Positions 8,137 through 54,992 of a stretch of 64,000 nucleotides of DNA are shown here, piece by piece (positions within the stretch are counted from its first letter, which is position 1; each line of letters starts with the position of its first letter). The notes beneath the pieces were generated by a model, which did no database searches, was not told the origin of the DNA, and saw only the letters and a program-made list of their open reading frames with translations. Origin of the DNA: Felis catus (lineage: Eukaryota); contig NC_058368.1 in the NCBI RefSeq assembly GCF_018350175.1, forward strand, positions 56,856,001 through 56,920,000, in the 5' to 3' direction. The translations under genes were made by a program, and so were the position numbers.

Positions 8137-8523
8137 TTTCTTTATTCTTTATTTTTTTATTTTTTTATATTTTCTAATTTTTAATTATTTTAAATGTTCA
8201 CTTAAATCCAAGTTAGTTAACATATAGTATAATAATGGTTTCAGAAGTAGGATTTAGTAATTCATCACTTACATATAACACCCAGTGCTGATCCCAAGAA
8301 ATGCCCTCGTTAATGCCCATCACCCACTTGGCCCATCTCCCTGACCCATTTTTCTTCCAGCAACCCTGAGTTTGTTCTCTGTTTTAAGAGTCTCTTGTGA
8401 TTTGCCTCCCTGTCCATTTTTATCTTATTTTTCCTTCCCTTCCCCATGTTCGTCATTTTGTTTCCTAAATTCCACGTAAAAATGAAATCATATGATATTT
8501 GTCTTTCTCCGACTTATTTCACT
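8137..8523 (-). mobile_element. 5'-truncated carnivore L1 (3'UTR only)
   Basis: Resembles the L1-A/B 3'UTR (aacacccagtgct, caaccctgagtttgttctc); poly(T) tail; TSD taccagatt at 8128-8136 and 8524-8532. Confidence 0.88.
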
Positions 8524-9224
8524 TACCAGATTGTTTTACACAGGTCTGTTTTATACAGATTACTACCCAGAAATCAGTGCAAAATTAATTAATATTTATG
8601 TTTACAAAATAACATCAAAGATTAAACTTTGTTGACTTTAAAAAATAAGAAATAAAAATGTTTACAAAATAAAACTAACAGAATTGAGAAAAGTATTCAT
8701 TCATTTGCTCTTAAAATTAGAGGAATATATTTCTAGAGCACTAAAGATCTCCCAAAAAGGGAATGTTTTTATTCTTTTGAACTTTTTTTGTACTAGAAAT
8801 TCTAGTGCTAATGCTGTCAACTTTAAAAGCAAGGTCAAATTTGATGCAATTTGCAGTGAATGTGCTACTCAGTTTAAAATAGTTTAAGAAAGTAGTATAT
8901 AGCCGATGACTACAATCTATAGCACAATTGATTTTTGTAACATTTTTTGTGCACTTAACTGTTCAATTTTGCAATGTGGTCATTTATCACCTAAATACAG
9001 CTTTTGAGACAAAAGTAATAATTTTTCATTATATAACTTAACATTTCATTGGATTGAAGACAGTTACAAGGGGTGAAATTTAATTTTCCTAGTTATGTAT
9101 TTTTGGGAAAAGTCTATAAATCAATTGAATTTGTCTGATTTTTCCCATGAATTTATTTTATACACAAACAAAATGACATTATTACCAAAATTTTAAAAAA
9201 ACACTAAATATTCCTTTAAATTAC

Positions 9225-11465
9225 CAATTTTTGTTTTGTTTTTTTTGTTTTTCCTTTCCTACACCCGCCCCCTCCCCAACCTTCCCACTGGTACCCATCA
9301 GTTTGTTCTCTGTAGTTAACAATCTGTTTCTTGGTTTGTCTCTCTCTCCTTTTTTTTTTCATATGTTTTATTTCTTAAAGTCCACATATGAGTGAAATCA
9401 TATGGTATTTATCTTTCTCTGACTTGTTTTGCTTAGCATTGTACTCTGTAGCTCTACCCATGTTGTTGCAAATGACAAGATTTCATTATTTTTTATGGTT
9501 GAATAATATTTCCTTGTCTATATTATATACAATGTCTATCCATTCATTTATCAATGGACACTTGGGCTGCTTCCATAGTTTGGCTATTATAAATAATGTT
9601 AAATAAACATAGGGGTGCATGTATCCCTTCGAGTTAGTGTTTTTGTGTTTTTTTTGTGTTTTTTGTGGTTTTTTTTTTTTTTTTTTTTTTTTTTTTGGTG
9701 AAGGGATATAAATACCCAGTAGTATGAGTGCTGGATAGTAGGGTGGTTCTATTTTCAGTTCTTTGAGGTACCTCCATACATTTTCCACAATGGCTGGACC
9801 AGTTTTCATTCCCACCAACAGTGTTCCTTTTTCTCCACAACCTTGCTAACACTTGTTTCTTGTGTTTTTGATTGTAGCCATTCAGACAGGCATGAGGGGA
9901 TATCTCATTGTAGTTTTGATTTGCATTTCCATGATGATGAGTGATGTTGAACATGTGTTCATGTCTCTGTTGGCCATCTGTGTGTCTTCTTTGGAGAAAA
10001 ATCTGTTCATGTCTTCTACCCATTTTTAAAATGGCTTATTTGTTTTCTGGATATTGAGTTGTTGTATGTGTTCTTTATATATTTGGATACTAACCCTTTA
10101 TCCGATATGTCATTTGCAAATATCTTTTCCCATTCAGTAGGTTGCCTTTTAGTTTTGCTGATTGTTTCCTTCACTGTGCAAAAATGCTTTATTTTGATAT
10201 AGTCCCAATAGTTTATTTTTGCTTCTATTTCCCTGGCCTCAGGAGACATCTAGAAAAATGTTGCTAAGATCGATGTAAGAGAAATTATTGTCTGTGCTCT
10301 AGTCAAAGATTTTTATGGTCTAGTATTTTCAGGTCTAGTATTTAGAACTTTAACCCATTGTGGTTGTTTTCATTTAATTTTTTTTAATGTTTATTATTTT
10401 TGAGAGAGAGACAGAGCATGAACATGGGAGGGGTAGACACAGAGGTAGACACAGAATCCAAAGCAAGCTCTAGGCTGTGCGCTATCAGCACAGAGCCCAA
10501 TGTGGGGCTCGAACTCATGGACCAAGAGATCATAACTTGAGCCAAAATCAGATGCTTAACTGACTGAGCCACTCAGGTGCCCCAAACCCATTTGAATTAA
10601 TTTTTGTGCGTGCTGAAAGTGAGTAGTCCAGTTTTATTCTTTTGTATGTGGCTGTCCAGTTTCCCCAAAGCCATTTGTTGAAGAGACGGTCTTTTTCTCA
10701 ATATATATTCATTCCTCCTTTGTTGAGGATTAATTGACCTATAATTGTGGGATTATCTACTTATATTCTGTTCTATTCCATTCATCTATGTGTCTGTTTC
10801 TATCCCAGTAAAGTACTCTTTTAATTACTACTGCTTTGTAATATAACTTAAAGTCTGGAAGAGTGATACTTCCAGTTTCATTTTTCTTTTTCAAGATTGC
10901 TTTGGCTATTTAGGATCTTTTGTGATTCCATACATATTTTAGGATTGTTTATTCTAGTTCTGTGAAAAATGCTGTTGGAATTTGGATAGGGGTGGCATTA
11001 AATCTATAGATTGATTTGGGTGGTATAGACACTTTAACAATATTTATTCTTCCAATACATGACCATGGAATGTCTTTCCATTTCTTTGTGTCATCTTCAG
11101 TTTCTTTTATCAGTGTTATATAGTTTTCAGAGTACAGATCTTTCTTAAGTTTATTCCTGGATATTTTATTGGTTTTGGTGTAATCATAAATAGGATTATT
11201 TTCTTCATTTCACTTACTGCTACTTCATTATTACTGTGCAAGAATGCAACAGATTTCTATATGTTGATTTTATACCCTGTGACTTTACTAAATTCATTTA
11301 TCAATTCCAGTAGTTTTTTGGTGCAGTCTTTTCAGTTTTCTATATATACTATTATGTTATCTGAAAATAGTGAGAGTTTTACTTCTTCCTTACTGATTTG
11401 GATGCCTTTATTTCTTTTTGTTGTTGAAGTGCTGTGGCTAGGACTTCTTGTAGTATGTTGAATTT
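9225..11465 (-). mobile_element. 5'-truncated older carnivore L1 (ORF2 C-terminal half plus 3'UTR) interrupted by a SINE
   Basis: ORF fragments 9486-9818, 10016-10249 and 11332-11523 match ORF2p ([24 protein letters not shown]). Confidence 0.92.
10376..10583 (-). mobile_element. Can-SINE inside the L1
   Basis: SINE body; aacccatt repeated on both flanks. Confidence 0.9.
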
Positions 11466-11649: not shown

Positions 11650-13665
11650 ACTAGGGAAGGACATTAGTGAGCTGGGTGAATAAGGTTTCTCTCACACATA
11701 CGCTTTTCTCAACAACAATTTAGCATCCATCCATAGGAAAAAAAATATGTTTTGGGGGGCTTTATGATCTAGCATTATGTGCCAAGGGACTTGGGAGAAG
11801 TTTTCCCCACTCATGCATTGGATAATGGATGTACAGACTTTGGTCCTGGCTGTAGACCCATTAATCAGCTCTGGCCCCTCTTGGCTACAGTCTAGGAGCT
11901 CCTGGAGAACACTGACTTGTGCAATTACCCATGGCCAAGAGATTTTTTTTAGGAAGAGTGTAGTCCAGTGGACAAATTTTAGCTCATTGTTGGAGCAAAA
12001 AGTCTAAGATTACACTCACTGGAGAAGGTAAAAACAGCTTGACTTTACCTGTCAACCAACCTCCAAGGCAACACAGTTTAGTGCCCACAGAGTCTGTTAC
12101 TTTTCCCATGGGAGAAAGTGACAGTATGTAAGTGAGTCCCCAGATTCCTCAGCTGTGTGGGATACTGCCAAAAGGACCCTTTGTCTCTCACCTCATTCAG
12201 AGTACTCAGTCATGAGAACTTGACTTGGGGTTGGTGACCAGCTGGAAGAATAGCAACCAGGGCTTGGAACAGAATGTGTCAAAGGGATTGGATCCTACTA
12301 ATTGCATTAGGGATTCCATCAGGAGGCCTGCACATGAACCTCTCCACCTCACCTCTGAATCCTTCAAACGTCTCATAAGGATGTCCAGCACAATTTGTGC
12401 CTCAACCACATACTCTCCCACCCTGTGGCCAGCTCCCTGTGTGTACTCATGATGGCAGCAAGAGCAAGATTTGGCAGATGGCTAGTGAGCACTTGCAGAA
12501 AGCCAGCCTGAATCAAAGCCAGCCTGCAGATCAGAGAGAGAGCACAAACTTGAGTATTTAGTATTGCCCTTGGGAGAAAAAAAGGAGGCTGTCACCACAC
12601 AGCCTAGTTAATTGCAGGATCATGAGAAGGCATATAAAATCAAGAATTCTGACCAAGAGAAAGCAAATGTGCAGGTTGATACATAGAAGGTCTCAGAAAA
12701 ACATCAGAATCAGGAGCAGAGGAATGGAAGGTATTTCTCTTCTAAAGTCAGACAGGAGAGACTGGAAGAGGTAGTTGCTACAATAAATGCAAAGACAGCA
12801 ACACAAAAGTTCAAGGAACATGAAAAATCAAGGAAACATGACACCAGCCAAGGAAACATAATACCAGCCATATAGTAAACATATAGTAAACATATAGTAG
12901 TAAACATATAGTAAAGACGTGGACTTTCGTGATTTAATAAAGAATTTGAAATAGCTGTTTTAAGGAAACTCATTGAACAATGAGAAAACACAAGTAAACA
13001 ATTAAATGATATCAATCCCACTTATGGTTATTTATCCAAAAGAAATGAAATATGGGTCTTGAAGAGATATATGCACTCCTGTATTTATTACAGCATTCTT
13101 TATGATACAACCTAAATGTTTTTGACAGGTGAATGAATAAAGAAGAGATATGATGTTTAACAACAGGATATTATTTAGCTATGAGAAAAGGAAATTTTGC
13201 CATATGTGACAACATAGATGCATTGTGAAAACATTATGCTAAGTGAAGTAAGTCAGAGAAAGACAAATACTGTATGATCTCACTTTTATGTGGAATCTAA
13301 AAAAGCTGAATTCATAGAAACAGAGTACAATAGTGGTTTCTGGGGAATGAGAGACCTGGAAAATGGGGAGATGTTGGTCAAAGTGTACAAACTCCCAGTT
13401 ATAAGATAAATTCTTGGTATCTAATATACAGCATGGTGACTATTACTAGTATTTTATATTTCAAAGTTTCTAAGAGGGTAGATTTTAAATGTGTCCCCAC
13501 TCCAAAAGAAGTTGTAACTATGTGAGGCATAACTATGACGGAAGTATTAACTAACCCTATTTTTGTAATCATTTTGCAGTATTAAGTGTCCCGAATCATC
13601 ACCTTGTACATCGTAAACTTACATAACGTTAAATGTCAGTTATATCTCATTAAAGCTGGAAGAAA
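11650..13665 (+). mobile_element. Old L1MA-like element: 5'UTR/ORF1 start joined near 13010 to ORF2 end and 3'UTR
   Basis: ORF1-like start (gaaaaatcaaggaaacatgacacc, gaatttgaaatagctgtttta) is followed directly by caatcccactt, attatgctaagtgaagtaagtcag and tatatctcattaaagctgg. Confidence 0.7.
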
Positions 13666-16883: not shown

Positions 16884-19599
16884 AACAGTGTACACCTGAA
16901 ACTAATATAACACTGTATATAACTATACTGGATTTAAAATAAAAAACTTAGCCCTCCGCAAAAAGTATCACATACAATCTTATTGGAATATTCACATAGA
17001 CCCAATAAAACTGATATTCTGCCAATCCTGTTTTACAGGTAAGCAAACTGTTGCTTAAGGACACTTAAGTTCACAAAACTATTGTGTTAACATTAAGAAA
17101 TTCCAAAGTATCTTTGCTTTTAAGAAATGTAACATAATGCATTTAAAAGAATATTCAGAGTGTTAAAGAATATGATTTTGATGGTAATCCCAGTTGAACA
17201 CTTCATGTTTTTAGCTACACACATAGGTAAAAAGGGTTTTCCTTGAATAAAAGTAACCCACTATTTTTCCTAATTTTACACTGGAAATTGTAAGCATTTT
17301 ACAGACTTTTATCATGCAAGTTTCCTTTCAAGTATGATTATCAAAACATAGAATTCAAGTTCAGCTTCTCATTTCCCCTGAGACCTCTTTTCACAAAGTG
17401 CACACATGCAGTGTCCGTACTTTTTAATTTGGGAAAGTTTATTTAATAAACTGAATAGGTATAAAGAGCTAAATACTTTCATACGAAGTAGTAATGATCC
17501 AAATCTTAATGCAGATGTCAGAAAAAAAAATTACTATTGTAACAAAATTGTAATTGTTCCTTTTTAATTTTGCCTGCTCTTGAAACAAAGAAGCAGCATG
17601 GGTTTTATACTTGTAGAGAGGATATGTTCATATTGTTTTCTACACTGCTACCTTCTAGGAATGCTCTAAAGTGTCATGTACACACTAAGCCTTAAGAAAG
17701 ATCATTAAAGACGTCATACTGAAAGCTTCATGTCGACCTCCTTCTTATAATTATATTTTGACAAGAGTAGTTATTTTATTGCATTTTATTCAACCCAAGT
17801 ATAATTTGGTATAACCTGCCAAATTAGAAAGGGTCTCTACATAGAAAGGCATGTAATTAATGTACTACAATTCTGGAAGGGTCAAATGTACATATCCATG
17901 TAATGAATAATTGTCACTTAATACTATTCAACCATGAAAAAAGAAGGGAAGTCCTGCCGTTTGTGACAGTATGGTGTGATATATTTATTTCATCCTGCTC
18001 TTCTCTTCTTGCCTATTGGCTTTTTTATCTTTAGGCTTGTTGCTCAGGTCAAAAGAGGTCACAGCACCAGTAATCACACCACCACTGAATTCAAGGCGGA
18101 CAAAAAGAGTAGGGTTTTTCACTTATCTTTTTTTGGGTGCAACATTCTTCAAATAAAAAGACTTCTTAATACTCAAGACTAGAATTGTACTATGGGTCCA
18201 TTCTTAAAATGAAGAATGAGAATGGAGGAGAATGAAGTAAATATTTCCCACTTACTTTAGAAATGGCTTATCCTGGATTTAATGGAGGAGCCAACCTTTA
18301 TTGAAACACTATACCAAACATAATTGCATAAGGAATTACATGCAGGAGGAAGAAATGTGTAGATTTTGTGTAAACAAACAGAATCTGATACATTCTTAAA
18401 AACTCACAAATTTTAAGCAGTTAGTGGAACTGCTCAAAAGCAAGATCTAAATTTTGTTTGAATTTGACAAGTAGTGGGAATTGTGTCTAGACCAATAACT
18501 TTCACTTCTCTAACTATCTTTAATTTCTAAAATATTTGGTCATGGTCTTTTGATGTAAATCAAATGCCTTCTGAATTCCACATCTTTCTTTCCTTATTTT
18601 ATATCCCATTCATTAAGTCAGTTTGAAACTTGGTGATCTTGGGGCAATTACTCCTCTCTACCATCCATAAATTTTATGGAGTTTTAAAAATGTTTGTCTG
18701 TGTGACTCTGTAAAAACATGATCATCTTTATAATCTGCACCATTTAAAAATTTTCTTCATTACTATTATTTTAAGTATAGAGTTAATTTGTTTTATAAGC
18801 TGGTTCATAGCTCATTTTTTTTAATGCTTTTAAGTCTTCCATCATGTGGTTGTTTTTCTAGTGACAGTGTTTACATATGTTAATAATATAGTTCTCAAAG
18901 AAAAATGTCATGTAATAAAAATAAAGGCCATGGCTAAGTTCACATGTCCATAATAGCATAGGTAGCTTGTGGTTTTTACCATGAGATAAGCTAATACCTA
19001 TATAATGCCAATAATACTAGACATTGGAATAGAAAGAGATTGCAAAATAGTTTACTAGTTTCAAATATTTTAGTGGCATTTGTTATGCATGTTTTGATTC
19101 AACCTTATTTTTTGTTGTTACTGTTTATCAATTGTATCCTATCAGCTGGTTAAATTCAGTGGTTGAGACTCCCTCTGGCTCTGAAATGACAGGAGTGTTT
19201 GGGATGAATATTGACTGGAAGCAGTAGGGTCAGAGAATCTTTCCCTATCCTGCTAAGGCACGAGTGAAGAAAGGGCCAGATGTGAATTAGAAGAAATTTT
19301 GCATGCATGGAAGAAGATACTGAGAAACCATCTAGCTATAGGAAATAAAATATCAATCCACATTAATGGAAATACTATGAGTTTTGTTGTAGCTCAAATA
19401 AAAATGAAATTCTGAGATTTTCTGAAAAGATTAGAACAAGTTAATGTAATTTCCCCTTCTTATTTCTGAAACTAAATTTTAAATTGTGTTATCTATTTCA
19501 TACATTTAATTTTTAAGCATTTTATTATCCTTCAAATATCACCAGCACTGTGTAAAGCATATAAAGTATATATTGTATTTAGTTATGTTTATAATTTTA

Positions 19600-19831
19600 T
19601 TTATTTATTATTTATTTTTTAATTTTTTTTAACCTTTATTTATTTTTGAGACAGAGAGAGACAGAGCATGAATGGGGGAGGGTCAGAGAGAGGGAGACAC
19701 AGAATCTGAAACAGGCTCCAGGCTCTGAGCTGTCAGCACAGAGCCCAACGCGGGGCTCGAACTCACAGACTGAAAGATCATGACCTGAGCTGAAGTCGGC
19801 TGCTTAACTGACTGAGCCACCCAGGCGCCCC
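19600..19831 (-). mobile_element. Can-SINE
   Basis: 20-bp TSD tagttatgtttataatttta at 19580-19599 and 19833-19852. Confidence 0.96.
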
Positions 19832-26591: not shown

Positions 26592-26835
26592 TTTAAGACC
26601 ATTTCTTTTTTTTTTTTTTATGAAATTTATTGACAAATTGGTTTCCATACAACACCCAGTGCTCATCCCAAAAGGTGCCCTCCTCAATACCCATCACCCA
26701 CCCTCTCCTCCCTCCCACCCCCCATCAACCCTCAGTTTGTTCTCAGTTTTTAAGAGTCTCTTATGCTTTGGCTCTCTCCCACTCTAACCTCTTTTTTTTT
26801 TCCTTCCCCTCCCCCATGGGTTCCTGTGAAGTTTC

Positions 26836-31604: not shown

Positions 31605-33229
31605 TTTGGATAGTCCTTGGCGTGGTGAGGACCTGCAGGGCACTTCCCCTGTGCTGTGGTGTATAACTGGAGTTGGTGGGCGGGGCCGCATTCAGACCTG
31701 ATGTCTGCCCCCAGCCCACCGCTGGGGCCACAGTCAGACTGGTGTGTGCCTTCTCTTCCCCTCTCCTAGGGGCGGGATTCACTGTGGGGTGGTGTGGCCC
31801 GTCTGGGCTACTTGCACACTGCCAGGCTTGTGATGCTGGGGATCTGGCATATTAGCTGGGGTGGGTAGGCAAGGTGCACAGGGGCAGGAGGGGCAGGCTT
31901 AGATCACTTCTCCTTAGGTGATCCACTTCAGGAGGGGCCCTGTGGCAGCGGGAGGGAGTCAGATCCACTGCCGGAGGTTTGGCTCCGCAGAAGCACAGAG
32001 TTGGGTGTTTGCGCGGAGCGAGCAAGTTCCCTGGCAGGAACTGGTTCTCTTTGGGATTTTGGCTGGGGGATGGGCGGGGGAGATGGCGCTGGCAAGCGCC
32101 TTTGTTCCCCACCAAAATGAGCTCTGTCGTCAGGGGGCTCAGCAGCTCTCCCTCCCTTTGTCCTCCAGCCTTCCAGCTTTCTGAGCAGAGCTGTTAACTT
32201 ATGACCGCCCAGACGCTAAGTTGTGCTTGCTGTGGGAACACAGTCTGTCAGGCCCCTCCGCTTTTGCAAGCCAGACTCGGGGGCTCTGCTTGGCCAGGAG
32301 CCGCCCCTCCGCCCCGGCTCCCTCCCGCCAGTCCGTGGAGCGCGCACCGCCTCGCCGCCCTTCCTACCCTCTTCCGTGGGCCTCTCGTCTGCGTTTGGCT
32401 CCGGCGACTCTGTTCTGCTAATCCTCTGGCAGTTTTCTGGGTTATTTAGGCAGGTGTAGGTGGAATCTAAGTGATCAGCAGGACGTGCGGTGAGCCCAGC
32501 GTCCTCCTAAGCCGCCATCTTCTCTTCTGGGTCCTAAAAATCTTTTTCAAGACCATTTCTATAGCAAGCTTCCTTTGCCCCTCCATGAACATAAATGTAA
32601 CTAAATCAACCCCCCTGAAAACTGATGAGAATCAAGAAACCAATTAAAAACCAAAAATAAAAAACATTTAAAAGAGCAACTTGGACACAAATAAATAGAA
32701 GAGGCAAGAAATTTCTTTTAATAACAAAAGGAAGATAAACAAAGGAGAAGGTCAGTTAGAAGTCAAATAAATTTCAAATAACTTAATAAATAAAAGTGAA
32801 ACTCTAATTCTGTTATATATAAGTACTACTTTTGAAAGATGTCCTTGAAAAATATTTAATCATTATGCTACTTATTTCTGATAAACAACATGAGGAAGTT
32901 GTTTCTATTTTTGGTCAACTTCCAAAATGGTACAGATATCTTTCTCATTGAAGCTCTAACAGGACACAGATTCTTTTGCCTTGTTGTAGCCAAGGTTGTT
33001 TCAATATTTTTTAACACATTGTAATCCCATAATAAAAACTGAATTAATTAATGTCCACTATAATGTATAGCCAAACCTGTTACAAGTCATATGTGAAAAA
33101 AAATTATTGTTTTCATAAATATTTTATAAAGAAACCCATACTGGATATATGGATTAGAAATAATGATTGGATTATCAAATTTAGATAAAACATTCAAGAG
33201 AAAGTTGATTCAATAAATGTGTTTCAATA

Positions 33230-33608
33230 AAGTCTTGCCATTTGCAACAGCATGGATGGACCTTGAAAACTTTATGCTAAGCGAAATAAGTCAGAGAAAG
33301 ACAAATACCATATGTGGTACTCATATGTGGACCCTAAATAAGCAAATAAAACCAAGTCCTGGAAATGTAATATATAGCATGGTGACTATAGATGTTAACA
33401 CTGTGTTGTATATTTGAATGTTGCTAAGAGAGTAAATTTTAAGAGTTCTCATCACAAGAAAAAAGACTTCTCTATATGGTGACAGATGTTAAGTAGACTT
33501 AATGTGGTGTTCATTTTGCAACATATCCAAATATTGAATCGTTATGTTGTACACCTGAAGCCAATAAAACATATGCCAATTATGCCTCACATTACAAAAA
33601 AAAAAAAA
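33230..33608 (+). mobile_element. L1 3' fragment (older L1MA/carnivore type)
   Basis: ttgccatttgcaacagcatggatggacc, atgctaagcgaaataagtcag, tgtacacctgaa and an A tail. Confidence 0.85.
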
Positions 33609-36430: not shown

Positions 36431-38011
36431 ACAGAATGTGTATTATCAGTTAACTCTCCACTGTACCTTCTCTTTCCTGTATATAGTATTTTTAATGAAG
36501 GGGGTCATAAATTGAATTTCAAAACATTTTTGGGGGGCTCACTAAACAAAGAAAATACAGTGGTAATAGTGCAGGCAAAACAATCATTTAAATATAAGGT
36601 AGCTTATGGTTTATATATTTTTCATTCCACTTTTTATTATAACATATTATTTTGTATTTTGCAACTGGAAAAAGCACTGCAGATTTTATAGAGAAGTGTT
36701 ATGGATGCCACATGGTGATGCAGCATTATGTTTAAAAATATATGTACATAGAGAAACCAAGAAATTTATCTATCAAAAAGAAATCAACTACATGCCCTGA
36801 AATGTGACCCAGATATAAGAAACAATCTAGCTGGGCTGACGATCAACTTGATGTCCTCTGACATTTTTATTTTGGTTCTCTCTGAAAAGGTGTCCTATTT
36901 TTCAGTTTTTAAGATGTGGAGAAATTTCTTTTACTGTTTGTCACAGTTAAGAGGAAAAAGTAGGAGTGAATCAAAGGTTATGTAATTTGATAATTTGGTA
37001 TTTTCCTACATTATTTTATTGTTTACAGTCTATATTTTTACACTTTTATTGAAATAAAGTAATATGCATGAATTTCTCTCTACCAAACCTTGGTTGTCCA
37101 TATATTATAACATTATAAATATATAGCTCTTAACAGGTCCCTAAAAAACATATATACTGAATGAAATAACTTGGAAAATAGTTCCTTTTCAAGACTCCAG
37201 GTCATGAAAGTTGTTTAATAGATTAGTTTAGCTCAGCTGTAACTGAAACCCTTTGGAAGAATAATAAAGTACTCATTGGGACCTTTCCTCCACTTATTAG
37301 ACTTACCGCAAGATGAGAAAATAAACTCAAATAAACACCTACCTTTAAGGTAACTGTTATTTACGAATTTGATTACTTGTAGAGGAATGGGTTTTCAGTT
37401 GATATAAATGACAGTCCCAACTATCTTTCTCTCTAGGCTATATGAGAGAAAGCTAGAAATTATCAAAGAACATATACTTTGGTGATAATTCCTAGGAGTT
37501 CTGGGGCATTTCTCTATCCTTTTGTGGTAGAGGTGACACATTTCCATTCCCTCAGAATCATATGAGGAAGGCTCAAGTGAACCCATTTGGAAAGTCAAAG
37601 ATGTTCTTGCAAGAATGTAGACTTGCATCATACTCCCCAGGTACAAACACTCAAAGTTTCTCCTCTGTACCTCCCTCTGGACTTGAAGATGGAACAGAGA
37701 GTTACAAAGGAGCATGCATGCCCTGAAGCCTCCTGAAGTTTATTGGACAGAAAAAGGTCTGCCTACTTCTTTTTTTTTTTTTTTTTTTTAATATGAAATT
37801 TATTGACAAATTAGTTTCCATACAACACCCAGTGCTCATCCCAAAAGGTGCCCTCCTCAATACCCATCACCCACCCTCTCCTCCCTCCCACCCCCCATCA
37901 ACCCTCAGTTTGTTCTCAGTTTTTAAGAGTCTCTTATACTTTGGCTCTCTCCCACTCTAACCTGTTTTTTTTTTTTTTCCTTCCCCTCCCCCATGGGTTC
38001 CTGTTAAATTC

Positions 38012-41000
38012 TCAGGGTCCACATAAGAGTGAAACCATATGGTATCTGTCTTTCTCTGTATGGCTTATTTCACTTAGCATCACACTCTCCAGTTCCATCC
38101 ACGTTGCTACAAAAGGCCATATTTCATTTTTTCTCATTGCCACGTAATATTCCATTGTGTATATAAACCACAATTTCTTTATCCATTCATCAGTTGATGG
38201 ACATTTAGGCTCTTTCCATAATTTGGCTATTGTTGAGAGTGCTGCTATGAACATTGGGGTACAAGTGGCCCTATGCATCAGTACTCCTGTATCCCTTGGA
38301 TAAATTCCTAGCAGTGCTATTGCTGGGTCATAGGGTAGGTCTATTTTTAATTTTCTGAGGAACCTCCACACTGCTTTCCAGAGCGGCTGCACCAATTTGC
38401 ATTCCCACCAACAGTGCAAGAGGGTTCCCGTTTCTCCACATCCTCTCCAGCATCTAGAGTCTCCTGATTTGTTCATTTTGGCCACTCTGACTGGCGTGAG
38501 GTGATACCTGAGTGTGGTTTTGATTTGTATTTCCCTGATAAGGAGCGACGCTGAACATCTTTTCATGTGCCTGTTGGCCATCCGGATGTCTTCTTTAGAG
38601 AAGTGTCTATTCATGTTTTCTGCCCATTTCTTCACTGGGTTATTTGTTTTTCGGGTGTGGAGTTTGGTGAGCTCTTTATAGATTTTGGATACTAGCCCTT
38701 TGTCCGATATGTCATTTGCGAATATCTTTTCCCATTCCGTTGGTTGCCTTTTAGTTTTGTTGGTTGTTTCCTTTGCTGTGCAGAAGCTTTTTATCTTCAT
38801 AAGGTCCCAGTAATTCACTTTTGCTTTTAATTCCCTTGCCTTTGGGGATGTGTCGAGTAAGAGATTGCTACGGCTGAGGTCAGAGAGGTCTTTTCCTGCT
38901 TTCTCCTCTAAGGTTTTGATGGTTTCCTGTCTCACATTTAGGTCCTTTATCCATTTTGAGTTTATTTTTGTGAATGGTGTGAGAAAGTGGTCTAGTTTCA
39001 ACCTTCTGCATGTTGCTGTCCAGTTCTCCCAGCACCATTTGTTAAAGAGGCTGTCTTTTTTCCATTGGATGTTCTTTCCTGCTTTGTCAAAGATGAGTTG
39101 GCCATACGTTTGTGGGTCTAGTTCTGGGGTTTCTATTCTATTCCATTGGTCTATGTGTCTGTTTCTGTGCCAATACCATGCTGTCTTGATGATGACAGCT
39201 TTGTAGTAGAGGCTAAAGTCTGGGATTGTGATGCCTCCTGCTTTGGTCTTCTTCTTCAAAATTCCTTTGGCTATTCGGGGCCTTTTGTGGTTCCATATGA
39301 ATTTTAGGATTGCTTGTTCTAGTTTCGAGAAGAATGCTGGTGCAATTTTGATTGGGATTGCATTGAATGTGTAGATAGCTTTGGGTAGTATTGACATTTT
39401 GACAATATTTATTTTTCCAATCCATGAGCAGGGAATGTCTTTCCATTTCTTTAAATCTTCTTCAATTTCCTTCATAAGCTTTCTATAGTTTTCAGCATAC
39501 AGATCCTTTACATCTTTGGTTAGATTTATTCCTAGGTATTTTATGCTTCTTGGTGCAATTGTGAATGGGATCAGTTTCTTTATTTGTCTTTCTGTTGCTT
39601 CATTGTTAGTGTATAAGAATGCAACTGATTTCTGTACATTGATTTTGTATCCTGCAACTTTGCTGAATTCCTGTATCAGTTCTAGTAGACTTTTGGTGGA
39701 GTCTATCGGATTTTCCATGTATAATATCATGTCATCTGCAAAAAGCGAAAGCTTGACTTCGTCTTTGCCAATTTTGATGCCTTTGATTTCCTTTTGTTGT
39801 CTGATTGCTGATGCTAGAACTTCCAGCACTATGTTAAACAGCAGCGGTGAGAGTGGGCATCCTTGTCGTGTTCCTGATCTCAGGGAAAAAGCTCTCAGTT
39901 TTTCCCCGTTGAGGATGATGTTAGCTGTGGGCTTTTCATAGATGGCTTTTATGATCTTTAAGTATGTTCCTTCTATCCCGACTTTCTCAAGGGTTTTTAT
40001 TAAGAAAGGGTGCTGGATTTTGTCAAAGGCCTTTTCTGCATCGATTGACAGGATCATATGGTTCTTCTCTTTTTTTTTGTTAATGTGATGTATCACGTTG
40101 ATTGATTTGCGAATGTTGAACCAGCCCTGCATCCCAGGAATGAATCCCACTTGATCATGGTGAATAATTCTTTTTATATGCCGTTGAATTCGATTTGCTA
40201 GTATCTTATTGAGAATTTTTGCATCCATATTCATCAGGGATATTGGCCTGTAGTTCTCTTTTTTTACTGGGTCTCTGTCAGGTTTAGGAATCAAAGTAAT
40301 ACTGGCTTCATAGAATGAGTCTGGAAGTTTTCCTTCCCTTTCTATTTCTTGGAATAGCTTGAGAAGGATAGGTATTATCTCTGCTTTAAACGTCTGGTAG
40401 AACTCCCCTGGGAAGCCATCTGGTCCTGGACTCTTATTTGTTGGGAGATTTTTGATAACCGATTCAATTTCTTCACTGGTTATGGGTCTGTTCAAGCTTT
40501 CTATTTCCTCCTGATTGAGTTTTGGAAGAGTGTGGGTGTTCAGGAATTTGTCCATTTCTTCCAGGTTGTCCAGTTTGTTGGCATATAATTTTTCATAGTA
40601 TTCCCTGATAATTGTTTGTATCTCTGAGGGATTGGTTGTAATAATTCCATTTTCATTCATGATTTTATCTATTTGGGTCATCTCCCTTTTCTTTTTGAGA
40701 AGCCTGGCTAGAGGTTTGTCAATTTTGTTTATTTTTTCAAAAAACCAACTCTTGGTTTCGTTGATCTGCTCTACAGTTTTTTTAGATTCTATATTGTTTA
40801 TTTCTGCTCTGATCTTTATTATTTCTCTTCTTCTGCTGGGTTTAGGCTGCCTTTGCTGTTCTGCTTCTAGTTCCTTTAGGTGTGCTGTTAGATTTTGTAT
40901 TTGGGATTTTTCTTGTTTCTTGAGATAGGCCTGGATTGCAATGTATTTTCCTCTCAGGACTGCCTTCGCTGCGTCCCAAAGCGTTTGGATTGTTGTATTT

Positions 41001-41836
41001 TCATTTTCGTTTGTTTCCATATATTTTTTAATTTCTTCTCTAATTGCCTGGTTGACCCACTCATTCGTTAGTAGGGTGTTCTTTAACCTCCATGCCTTTG
41101 GAGGTTTTCCAGACTTTTTCCTGTGGTTGATTTCAAGCTTCATAGCATTGTGGTCTGAAAGTATGCATGGTATAATTTCAATTCTTGTAAACTTATGAAG
41201 GGCTGTTTTGTGACCCAGTATGTGATCTATCTTGGAGAATGTTCCATGTGCACTCGAGAAGAAAGTATATTCTGTTGCTTTGGGATGCAGCGTTCTAAAT
41301 ATATCTGTCAAGTCCATCTGATCCAATGTCTCATTCAGGGCCCTTGTTTCTTTATTGATCGTGTGTCTAGATGATCTGTCCATTTCTGTAAGTGGGGTGT
41401 TAAAGTCCCCTGCAATTACCACATTCTTATCAATAAGATTGCTTATGTTTATGAGTAATTGTTTTATATATTTGGGGGCTCCGGTATTCGGCGCATAGAC
41501 ATTTATAATTGTTAGCTCTTCCTGATGGATAGACCCTGTAACTATTATATAATGTCCTTCTTCATCTCTTGTTACAGCCTTTAATTTAAAGTCTAGTTTG
41601 TCTGATATAAGTATGGCTACTCCAGCTTTCTTTTGGCTTCCAGTCGCATGATAAATAGTTCTCCATCCCCTCACTCTCAATCTAAAGGTGTCCTCAGGTC
41701 TAAAATGAGTCTCTTGTAGACAGCAAATAGATGGGTCTTGTTTTTTTATCCATTCTGATACCCTATGTCTTTTGGTTGGTGCATTTAATCCATTTACATT
41801 CAGTGTTATTATAGAAAGATACGGGTTGAGAGTCAT
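38012..41836 (-). CDS. L1 ORF2p (APE endonuclease, reverse transcriptase, Cys-rich domain), 1274 aa from the ATG of MTLNPYLS
   Basis: Uninterrupted ORF with EN motifs NVNGLN, QETH, YAPN, GDFNTP, KIDH and SDH, PIP-like [16 protein letters not shown] and [18 protein letters not shown]. The track ORF starts at an upstream GTG (41890); the first ATG is at 41836. Confidence 0.97.
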
Positions 41837-41886
41837 TGTGATGTCTGTATGATTTATGCTTGTAGTGATGTCTCTGGGACTTTGTC

Positions 41887-42780
41887 TCACAGGGTCCCCC
41901 TTAGGATCTCTTGTAGGGCTGGTTTAGTGGTGACAAATTCCTTCAGTTTTTGTTTGTTTGGGAAAACCTTTATCTCTCCTTCTATTCTAAATGACAGACT
42001 TGCTGGGTAAAGGATTCTCGGCTGCATATTTTTTCTGTCTAGCACCCTGAAAATCTCCTGCCAATTCTTTCTGGCCTGCCAAGTTTCAAAAGAGAGATCA
42101 GTCACGAGTCTTATAGGTCTCCCTTTATATGTGAGGGCACGTTTACCCCTTGCTGCTTTCAGAATTTTCTCTTTATCCTTGTATTTTGCCAGTTTCACTA
42201 TGATATGTTGTGCAGAAGATCGATTCAAGTTACGTCTGAAGGGAGTTCTCTGTGCCTCTTGGATTTCAATGCCTTTTTCCTTCCCCAGTTCAGGGAAGTT
42301 CTCAGCTATTATTTCTTCAAGTACCCCTTCAGCACCTTTCCCTCTCTCTTCCTCCTCTGGGATACCAATTATGCGTATATTATTTCTTTTTAGTGTATCA
42401 CTTAGTTCTCTAATTTTCCCCTCATACTCCTGGATTTTTTTATCTCTCTTTTTCTCAGCTTCCTCTTTTTCCATAACTTTATCCTCTAGTTCACCTATTC
42501 TCTCCTCTGCCTCTTCAAGCCGAGCTGTGGTGGTTTCCATTTTGTTATGCATTTCGTTTAAAGCGTTTTTCAGCTCCTCGTGACTGTTCCTTAGTCCCTT
42601 GATCTCTGTAGCAAGAGATTCTCTGCTGTCCTGTATACTGTTTTCAAGCCCAGCGATTAATTTTATGACTATTATTCTAAATTCACTTTCTGTTAAATTA
42701 TTTAAATCCTTTTTGATCAGTTCATTAGCTGTTGTTATTTCCTGGAGATTCTTCTGAGGGGAATTCTTCCGCTTGGTCAT
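41887..42780 (-). CDS. L1 ORF1p (coiled-coil, RRM, CTD RNA-binding protein), 297 aa from the ATG of [10 protein letters not shown]
   Basis: Open frame with heptad coiled coil, [13 protein letters not shown] and YPASLS motifs. The stop lies 50 nt upstream of the ORF2 ATG. Confidence 0.95.
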
Positions 42781-43710
42781 TTTGGATAGTCCCTGGCGTG
42801 GTGAGGACCTGCAGGGCACTTCCCCTGTGTTGTGGTGTATAACTGGAGTTGGTGGGCGGGGCCGCAGTCAGACCTGATGTCTGCCCCCAGCCCACCGCTG
42901 GGGCCACAGTCAGACTGGTGTGTGCCTTCTCTTCCCCTCTCCTAGGGGCGGGATTCACTGTGGGGTGGTGTGGCCCGTCTGGGCTACTTGCACACTGCCA
43001 GGCTTGTGATGCTGGGGATCTGGCGTATTAGCTGGGGTGGGTAGGCAAGGTGCACGGGGGTAGGAGGGGCAGGCTTAGATCGCTTCTCCTTAGGTGATCC
43101 TCTTCAGGAGGGGCCCTGTGGCAGCGGGAGGGAGTCAGATCCGCTGCCGGAGGTTTGGCTCCGCAGAAGCACAGAGTTGGGTGTTTGCGCGGAGCGAGCA
43201 AGTTCCCTGGCAGGAACTGGTTCTCTTTGGGATTTTGGCTGGGGGATGGGCGGGGGAGATGGCGCTGGCGAGCGCCTTTGCTCCCCACCAAGCTGAGCTC
43301 TGTCGTCAGGGGGCTCAGCAGCTCTCCCTCCCTTTGTCCTCCAGCCTTCCCGCTTTCCGAGCAGAGCTGTTAACTTATGACCTCCCAGACGCTAAGTCGC
43401 GCTTGTTGTGGGAACACAGTCCGTCAGGCCCCTCCGCTTTTGCCAGCCAGACTCGGGGGCTCTGCTTGGCCGGCGAGCCGCCCCTCCGCCCCGGCTCCCT
43501 CCCGCCAGTCCGTGGAGCGCGCACCGCCACGCCGCCCTTCCTACCCTCTTCCGTGGGCCTCTCGTCTGCGTTTGGCTCCGGCGACTCCGTTCTGCTAATC
43601 CTCTGGCGGTTTTCTGGGTTATTTAGGCAGGTGTAGGTGGAATCTAAGTGATCAGCAGGACGCGCGGTGAGCCCAGCGTCCTCCTAAGCCGCCATCTTGC
43701 CGCTTCTCCC
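42781..43710 (-). promoter_or_regulatory. L1-B 5'UTR / internal Pol II promoter (CpG island-like) with YY1 motif CAAGATGGCGG near 43689-43699
   Basis: GC/CpG-rich stretch in an AT-rich background. The YY1 consensus sits about 12 nt from the element 5' end, as in other mammalian L1s. Confidence 0.85.
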
Positions 43711-43740
43711 AGGTCTGCCTACTTCTAAAAGAGGAAGAAA

Positions 43741-43762
43741 GGGAGAGAGAGTGAAAGAGAGA

Positions 43763-43823
<61 letters not shown>

Positions 43824-43841
43824 AAAGAAAGAAGAAAGAAA
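43741..43841. repeat. (GA)n/(AAAG)n purine microsatellite
   Basis: Directly visible next to the L1-B TSD. Confidence 0.95.
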
Positions 43842-45626: not shown

Positions 45627-46488
45627 GCTGATAATATTGTTTTATCTGCTTTTTTTCATGCATAGTATTTGTTATAGTTCTTTCTTCCACCTACTTTCAA
45701 CATGTTTGTTACTTTATATAGAATGTATGTTGCTTGCAGATGATACATAAATTTTTTATTAAGCTGATATCTTCTTTTATTGAAATGTTTAGGAAGATCA
45801 TGTGGTGTTCAAGTCTGAAGTCTTGCTCTTTGTTGTGTACTGGGTCCCTCCAACCTTTGTTACTTTATTCTTCCTTTCTTGACTCATTATGTTTGACTCA
45901 AATATTTGCATTTGAATTCCATTTTATCTACTTTCTTAGATTGTGGTTCTGCTATTTTTATATTTTAGTGACTATTCTAGGTATTACAATATCTACCAAT
46001 AATTATCACAGTCTACCTCCAAGTGACAATATAGTCCCTCTTGCATAAATAAGTAAACTTATTATATATTATCACATACACAACTCTTTCCTTGTCTTTT
46101 ATGGATCATAGTTAATTACCTATTTTATTAACATCATAACAGAATATATAATTATATGTATGTTATTGCTTTAAATATTTAGTTGATCATTAAAGAATTT
46201 AACAGGTGGCTCAAAGGAAATATAATAAAGTTTACCCACATGTTATCATTCCAAATAGCAGTCATTCCTTTCTGAATCCTAACTTGCATCTAGTACCATT
46301 TTTCTTCATATATCATATTAAATAAAATAAAGGACAAAAAAAAACACTTGATCACAGTCATTGCATAAAAACTTTTTAGAAGTTAGCACACTTTCATAAT
46401 AAAAATACCGAGCAAACTAGGGTTAAAAGGTAACCTCCTCAAACTCACAAAGGGTGTTTACAAAAAGTTTAGACATAATTGCAGTCTT

Positions 46489-46936
46489 TTTTTTTTCAAC
46501 ATTTATTCATTTTTGAAAGACAGAGAGAGACAGAGCACAAACAGGGGAGGGCTAGAGAGAGGGAGACACAGAATCCAAAGCAAGCTCTAGGCTCCAGACT
46601 GTCAGCACAGAGCCTGATGTGGGGCTCGAACTCACAGACCATGATTCATGACCTGAGCTGAAGTCGGCCGCTTAACTGACTGAGCCACCCAGGCGCCCCA
46701 TAGATAATTTCAGTCTTTTTTTTTTTTTTAATGTTTTTATTTATTTTTGAAAGAGAGAGAGAGACAGAGCATGAGCGGGAGAAGAGCCGAGAGAGAGGGA
46801 GAAGTAGAATCCGAAGCAGGCTCCAGGCTCTGAGCTGTCAGCACAGAGCTCGATGCAGGGCTCGAACTCACAAACTGTGAGTTCATGACCTGAGCTGAAG
46901 TCGGACTCTTAGGCAACTGAGCCACCCAGATGCCCC
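46489..46936 (-). mobile_element. Two tandem Can-SINEs (46489-46699 and 46718-46936)
   Basis: Three copies of the target ataatt(g/t)cagtctt bracket and separate them. Confidence 0.95.
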
Positions 46937-54778: not shown

Positions 54779-54992
54779 TTTTTTTTTCAAAAATTTTTTT
54801 AACGTTTGTTTATTTTTGAGAGAGAGAGAGAACAAGTGGGGCAGGGACAGAACAAGAGGGGGACAGAAGTTACAAAGCAGGCTCCACATGCTGACAGCAG
54901 AGAGCCTGATGTGGGGCTTGAACTCACAAACAGGGATATCATAACCTGAGCTGAAGTCAGATGCTTAACTGACTGAGCCACCCAGGCACCCC
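54779..54992 (-). mobile_element. Can-SINE
   Basis: SINE body; acattaccc on both flanks. Confidence 0.92.

Follow-up and report, generated by a model that had tools for sequence, protein, structure and literature searches.

We analysed a 64,000-nt stretch of the Felis catus genome (contig NC_058368.1, forward-strand positions 56,856,001 to 56,920,000; hereafter the window, with positions counted from its first letter). At 37771-43710 the window carries, on the minus strand, a LINE-1 (long interspersed element 1, or L1) of 5,940 bp, which an earlier note had described as an intact, potentially active source element. We found that the element is real, recent and ordinary, and that it is a further copy of a known felid L1 type. 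Its first open reading frame (ORF1) encodes glutamine at residue 191, a position within its RNA recognition motif (RRM) that was overlooked in that note. The most likely account, to which we assign a probability of about 0.65 on sequence evidence, is that of an ordinary, fairly recent full-length felid L1 in which Gln191 is a lesion acquired after insertion that would leave the copy with poor or no retrotransposition in cis.

The element has the layout of a mammalian LINE-1, a member of the L1 clade of non-long terminal repeat retrotransposons: ORF1 with an RRM plus a CTD (C-terminal domain) is followed in tandem by ORF2 with an APE endonuclease (EN) and a reverse transcriptase (RT). A CpG-rich 5′ untranslated region (5′UTR) and a YY1-type site close to the 5′ end mark it as full length (Table 1). 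The CpG observed/expected ratio is 0.58 in the 5′UTR and 0.13 in both flanks; the sense strand of the 5′UTR has a single ATG, opening a 3-codon frame, and we found no monomer repeats in it. The YY1 label and the function of that motif are assumed from human L1. Hallmarks of target-primed reverse transcription are present in the 16-bp target site duplication (TSD), the tail of 19-20 adenines and the T/A-rich nick site. Exactly two occurrences of the 16-mer exist in the window, one adjoining each end of the element (chance expectation 2e-5 per window), and the T run on the plus strand measures 20 at 37770-37789, its first T also belonging to the TSD. We take TTCT/AAAA to be a variant of the TTTT/AA-type L1 endonuclease site. 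The 5′ end agrees within a few bases with those of a neighbouring L1 and of L001, a felid-like metagenomic locus described below. At the level of sequence, these hallmarks establish that a full-length RNA of a young felid L1 was inserted by target-primed reverse transcription. A (GAAA)n microsatellite (43730-43841) starts four bases from the 5′ TSD, placing the insertion at the edge of a purine tract. In its structural description the earlier note was borne out throughout: both ORFs are open, the EN, RT (FADD), PIP-like and CCHC motifs are all located in the ORF2 protein (ORF2p), CpGs are retained in the 5′UTR, a YY1-type motif is present, and the A tail is clean and the TSD perfect.

Table 1. 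Parts of the L1 element and its target site duplication, in window coordinates
Feature	Position	Strand	Details
TSD, 5′ copy	43711..43726	-	exact 16-mer; endonuclease nick in TTCT/AAAA, plus strand
5′UTR with internal promoter	42781..43710	-	930 nt, 63% GC, 54 CpGs
YY1-type site	43688..43699	-	element position 12-23; motif located in the sequence
Antisense open frame within the 5′UTR	43259..43636	+	125 aa counted from ATG, or 172 aa with an upstream GTG as start
ORF1	41887..42780	-	297 aa, coiled coil-RRM-CTD RNA chaperone; Pfam PF02994, PF17490
ORF1 codon 191	42208..42210	-	CAA (Gln); position of the invariant RRM arginine that corresponds to human R215
Inter-ORF spacer	41837..41886	-	50 nt
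ORF2	38012..41836	-	1,274 aa, apparently intact, with APE endonuclease, PIP box, reverse transcriptase and CCHC domain
3′UTR	37790..38011	-	G-rich tract, internal A run, AATAAA at 37799-37804
Poly(A) tail, pure	37771..37789	-	19 nt; 20 counting the base common to the TSD
TSD, 3′ copy	37755..37770	-	exact 16 bp

Both proteins identify the copy as feline, as had been claimed. The ORF1 protein (ORF1p) matches the L1 RRM and CTD families of Pfam and human ORF1p structures, has the length of the family, and shows 97% identity to a Felis catus cluster of 234 members and equal length and 97-99% identity to cat entries, with 294 of 297 residues matching P0264. ORF2p matches Pfam EN and RT domains, and solved structures likewise place it in mammalian LINE-1. 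It retains the endonuclease and RT residues N13, E42, Y114, D144, N146, D204 and H229, and D599, F604 and FADD (699-702), together with a PIP-like QTIIREYY at 407-414 and the cysteine-rich motif C1129-x3-C1133-x7-H1141-C1142-x3-C1146. As far as the EN, RT, PIP and CCHC residues of a competent L1 are concerned, ORF2p thus appears intact. Compared with 15 felid proteins (14 listed cluster members and one lion protein, with coverage of at least two everywhere) it has no private residue, and it differs from the cat copy P0244 at one position (1,167 of 1,168 residues identical). Where 19 chosen non-felid outgroup proteins share a conserved state, ORF2p deviates at 34 positions, and at all 34 it has the felid majority state. 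The exact protein is already annotated: it belongs to a UniRef cluster of 780 members that includes named entries from cat and lynx.

Near identity to cat copies in both ORFs places the element in the youngest felid L1 lineage. In the young domestic-cat LINE-1 family, represented by the UniRef Felis catus clusters and presumably the L1_Fc of repeat libraries, ORF1p likewise has 297 aa and is 95-99% identical to that of the copy, and ORF2p is 97-99.9% identical; the copy differs in having Leu29 and Gln191 in ORF1p, which the close relatives examined lack. Leu29 replaces isoleucine and is conservative. Counted against about 3,500 non-synonymous sites, these two private residues correspond to an age of about 0.25 Myr (Poisson range 0.03-0.9) at a mutation rate that we take to be 2.3e-9 per site per year. 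The element was therefore rightly called recent; it would be young rather than new, with an insertion that probably dates back a few hundred thousand years.

We then examined Gln191 in 134 relatives, comprising the best 120 of 956 matches and 14 cluster members. Among the 126 that cover the site, residue 191 is arginine in 113, glutamine in six and another residue in seven. All 16 close felid relatives at >=93% identity (that is, at least 93%) have Arg191, and an equivalent arginine is present in all 19 chosen outgroups. Among the 120 listed matches, Arg191 occurs in every multi-member cluster that covers the site (28/28) versus 72 of 85 single-member clusters (Fisher p 0.036). Across the multi-member clusters 32 ORF1p positions are invariant; the copy keeps 31 of them, and residue 191 is the sole loss. 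The set of invariant ORF1p residues expected of a competent L1 is thus incomplete.

The codon itself suggests how the arginine was lost. Of 28 older copies, at 75-93% identity, nine have lost codon 191, a rate similar to that of six other CGN codons, so that recurrent Gln191 looks like CpG decay. A second, dead L1 nearby has glycine (GGA) at this codon, and the two neighbours were mutated there by different base changes. This GGA and the 9/28 losses at 75-93% identity are consistent with codon 191 being a CpG hot spot that was mutated repeatedly after insertion, more than with a subfamily trait.

In the alignment to human ORF1p, residue 191 stands directly after the T-P of RRATPRH and equals human R215. 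The accessible text of PMC6428221, which numbers this dipeptide T213-P214, describes E165-R215 as one of two highly conserved salt bridges of the RRM. The partner glutamate is kept in the copy as E142, the E142-R191 pair being equivalent to human E165-R215. In a trialanine scan, as far as the accessible part of the report goes, only 16% of mutants kept wild-type activity, and 16 mutants of the RRM lacked both protein and activity (bioRxiv 10.1101/721357). We infer from these comparisons that Gln191 affects ORF1p function.

We propose that ORF2p would have nicked the target at TTCT/AAAA and primed on the A tail, inserting the copy between its 16-bp duplications, and that a methylated CpG in ORF1 codon 191 would later have been deaminated, removing the arginine of the conserved loop salt bridge. 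Loss of the bridge would most likely weaken ORF1p folding or RNA binding and result in poor or no retrotransposition in cis. Since an L1 needs ORF1p in cis and Arg191 is lost, this function is probably compromised. Short interspersed elements (SINEs) need only ORF2p, according to the available portion of PMC5203782, and if there is transcription from the locus, CanSINEs could yet be mobilised in trans by the ORF2p of this copy.

Several points weigh against a disabling effect of Gln191. The literature searched yielded no direct test of an R215 substitution. Glutamine is also found in the six relatives mentioned above, and the older locus L001, 93% identical, likewise has CAA at codon 191, so that Gln191 may be an inherited, tolerated variant. 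This locus came from a metagenome scan with ORF1p in which 348 pattern matches resolved into three loci, one of them felid-like; the other two, L002 and L003, were not used. The T213-P214 site is Ser-Ala in all 18 felid proteins, and because the felid loop already differs from the human one in this way, it may be more tolerant. The comparison covers 15 of the 234 members of the cat ORF1p cluster, and the base at codon 191 may also be an assembly error.

The second full-length L1 (26607-32548, minus strand), absent from the earlier note, is separated from our copy by 5.2 kb, has the same orientation, belongs to the same family and is 98.1% identical. CpGs kept in our copy and lost in this neighbour outnumber the reverse by 23 to 7 over the element and by 13 to 0 in the 5′UTR. 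With L001 as third sequence (1,691 columns), 13 columns are changed only in our copy and 27 only in the neighbour. This state of preservation, with both ORFs open, an ORF2p one residue from its sister over 1,168 aa and an intact YY1 site and pure tail, would fit a copy that tolerates Gln191, is competent for retrotransposition in cis and may serve as a source element. Moreover, a comparable dog L1 was cloned and found active, according to the available part of PMC13756887. Competence is nevertheless doubtful, because Gln191 occupies an invariant RRM arginine position and open ORFs predict little: in one human genome, activity was seen for only 29 of the 142 intact L1s that were cloned (accessible text of PMC10883270). 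Weighing sequence features against this base rate, we consider competence in cis unlikely, and the earlier description of the element as competent doubtful.

The same CpG comparison bears on whether the locus is active at all. With a methylated promoter and no RNA it would be wholly inert in vivo, a recent fossil in good preservation for which neither ORF would matter; such inertness shares ground with the post-insertion lesion that we favour but denies any activity in trans. Germline methylation of the body is implied by the CpG transition in ORF1 together with six CpGs of ORF2 that were lost by comparison with the neighbour, and at three places in the 5′UTR the copy has the minority state among its 20 closest relatives. 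The 5′UTR argues the other way, having lost no CpG relative to the neighbour against 13 in the reverse direction, and we hold complete inertness to be a serious possibility, though with odds somewhat short of even.

Public sequencing runs were searched for the insertion site. Of 24 runs listed, 20, all of one organism, contained every sampled word of the left flank, and contigs of 4 of the 24 were aligned to the left flank and the 3′ end, with the TSD and T run outside the alignment. In each of two cat studies (X17 and X19) one contig of single-copy depth spans the 3′ flank as far as the TSD with no differences and ends 43 (X17) or 34 letters (X19) past the last aligned base. On a filled allele the last 31-mer that contains a flank letter ends at exactly 43, whereas 14 would be the end point for a heterozygous site that had not been simplified. 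The contig ends thus lean weakly to a filled site in both runs and so to presence of the insertion in other cats, where the earlier note had suggested a possible polymorphism; an empty allele continuing into the purine-rich right flank could end similarly. A third cat run (X15) returned no flank contig. The remaining run, X21, comes from a distant species (10-15% different), too distant for dating the insertion; its contig runs 548 letters without an L1 3′ piece. Neither X17 nor X19 has an extra contig with the 3′ flank, and thus no sign of 3′ transductions, although contigs show presence and cannot prove absence. This speaks against competence as far as it goes, and the designation as a source element is left without support in the two informative runs.

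These runs also illustrate how large the family is: each cat run returned 17,600-19,800 contigs on a 1.3-kb stretch, nearly all of them on its 240-nt L1 3′ end. Such abundance could in principle have led to a partial assembly artefact, with reads of sister copies collapsed into open ORFs or Gln191 miscalled. A collapse is disfavoured because it would yield family-majority states, yet the copy has the private residues Leu29 and Gln191. Among 15 billion sequences none equals its ORF1p exactly, the neighbour at 5 kb distance was resolved as a distinct broken copy, and Gln191 is the transition expected at a CpG. An artefact is accordingly improbable, and a genuine copy damaged after insertion by loss of Arg191 remains our preferred explanation.

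The neighbouring L1 has a 12-bp TSD (26595-26606 and 32549-32560) and is disrupted by frameshifts, by a stop at codon 854 of ORF2 and by loss of the ORF1 ATG; it adjoins the head of a CanSINE. Between its TSD and its normal 5′ end are about 20-25 extra bases, the first a G (32522-32548). They have no other source in the window and may represent a short 5′ transduction that came from the source locus of this L1. Older L1 3′ fragments of 70-76% identity are found at 8269-11462 (minus strand), 13111-13294 (plus) and 33226-33335 (plus), the largest (8269-11462) being interrupted by a CanSINE at 10379-10583. CanSINEs form head-to-tail clusters at 1286-2691 (about six copies) and 46487-46936 (two), and the window has about 20 SINE matches in all. 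The sole Rfam match, a weak tRNA match at 54903-54987 (minus strand), lies at a SINE head, which is in line with the tRNA origin of CanSINEs. A scan of 131 frames of >=62 aa (at least 62 aa) outside the L1s revealed no host gene around the element, though short exons would escape this search; one of these frames gave a sub-threshold, low-complexity Pfam match.

The antisense frame in the 5′UTR begins 452 nt into the element and resembles primate ORF0 in placement; we treat it as a candidate, not as a shown gene. It corresponds to 308 predicted proteins in felid-like contigs, matches that were selected for openness, and its start methionine is kept in 91 of 108 covering matches. Frames of at least 125 codons were reached by 196 of 2,000 shuffles (chance probability about 0.1), and the frame is stopped in the neighbouring L1 and in L001. 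Its protein belongs to no Pfam family and matched only short proteins (72-242 aa, 50 matches). Splice-donor-like sites lie at ~43629 and ~43667, near the end of the frame. A reverse ORF of about 1 kb over ORF1, described for tiger and dog in the available part of PMC5203782, is absent here, the longest antisense frame in that region being 190 codons from stop to stop.

Ser-Ala occupies codons 189-190 (42211-42216) in all 18 felid ORF1 proteins, whereas Thr and Pro are found in 17 and 19 of the 19 outgroups, respectively, and the accessible text of PMC6428221 counts T213-P214 among the phosphorylation sites required in human L1. Only two S/T-P sites remain in the ORF1p of the copy. Neither the loss of this site nor the antisense frame alters our assessment of the element. 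One could imagine that the felid 5′UTR independently evolved an ORF0-like antisense gene making fusion proteins, given its strong start context, its openness across the young family and its position beside splice-donor-like sites, and at the same time that felid ORF1p came to be regulated differently after the loss of T213-P214, so that the copy stays active despite Gln191; we judge this combination highly improbable.

The copy shares its collinear EN, RT, PIP and CCHC motifs with human L1HS (L1RP/L1.3; ORF2p structures 8uw3, 8sxt and 8c8j, ORF1p structures 2yko and 2w7a). The RRM and CTD also align, with RGK, ARK and YPASL in the copy at human REKG, ARR and YPAKLS, motifs whose roles are taken to be those in the human protein. 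The two differ in ORF1p length (297 versus 338 aa), in the felid Ser-Ala for T213-P214 and in the glutamine for R215. The architecture is likewise that of the active dog L1_Cf, and the ORF2p is 75% identical to a 1,275-aa canid cluster; for ORF1p, identity to large non-feliform clusters does not exceed about 57%, the assignment to dog being inferred. In dog, as the accessible part of PMC13756887 reports, one intact L1_Cf shows activity in culture and can mobilise both SINEC_Cf and Alu, and there are 1,410 intact dimorphic copies. The activity shown is that of a dog element, and the literature searched, which left out most subscription papers, contained no functional assay of a cat L1.

L1s with both ORFs intact number 423 in tiger, 424 in dog and one in the old cat assembly felCat5, which was counted among poor drafts (available portion of PMC5203782). 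Because L1s in which both ORFs are open run to hundreds in carnivore genomes, and because the ORF2p described here is already annotated, a single locus matters little. It does caution that open ORFs with their motifs should not be equated with competence. An active feline L1 would, if true, be a modest first. The value of this copy lies less in being the best candidate for activity than in providing a natural test of the R215 salt bridge.

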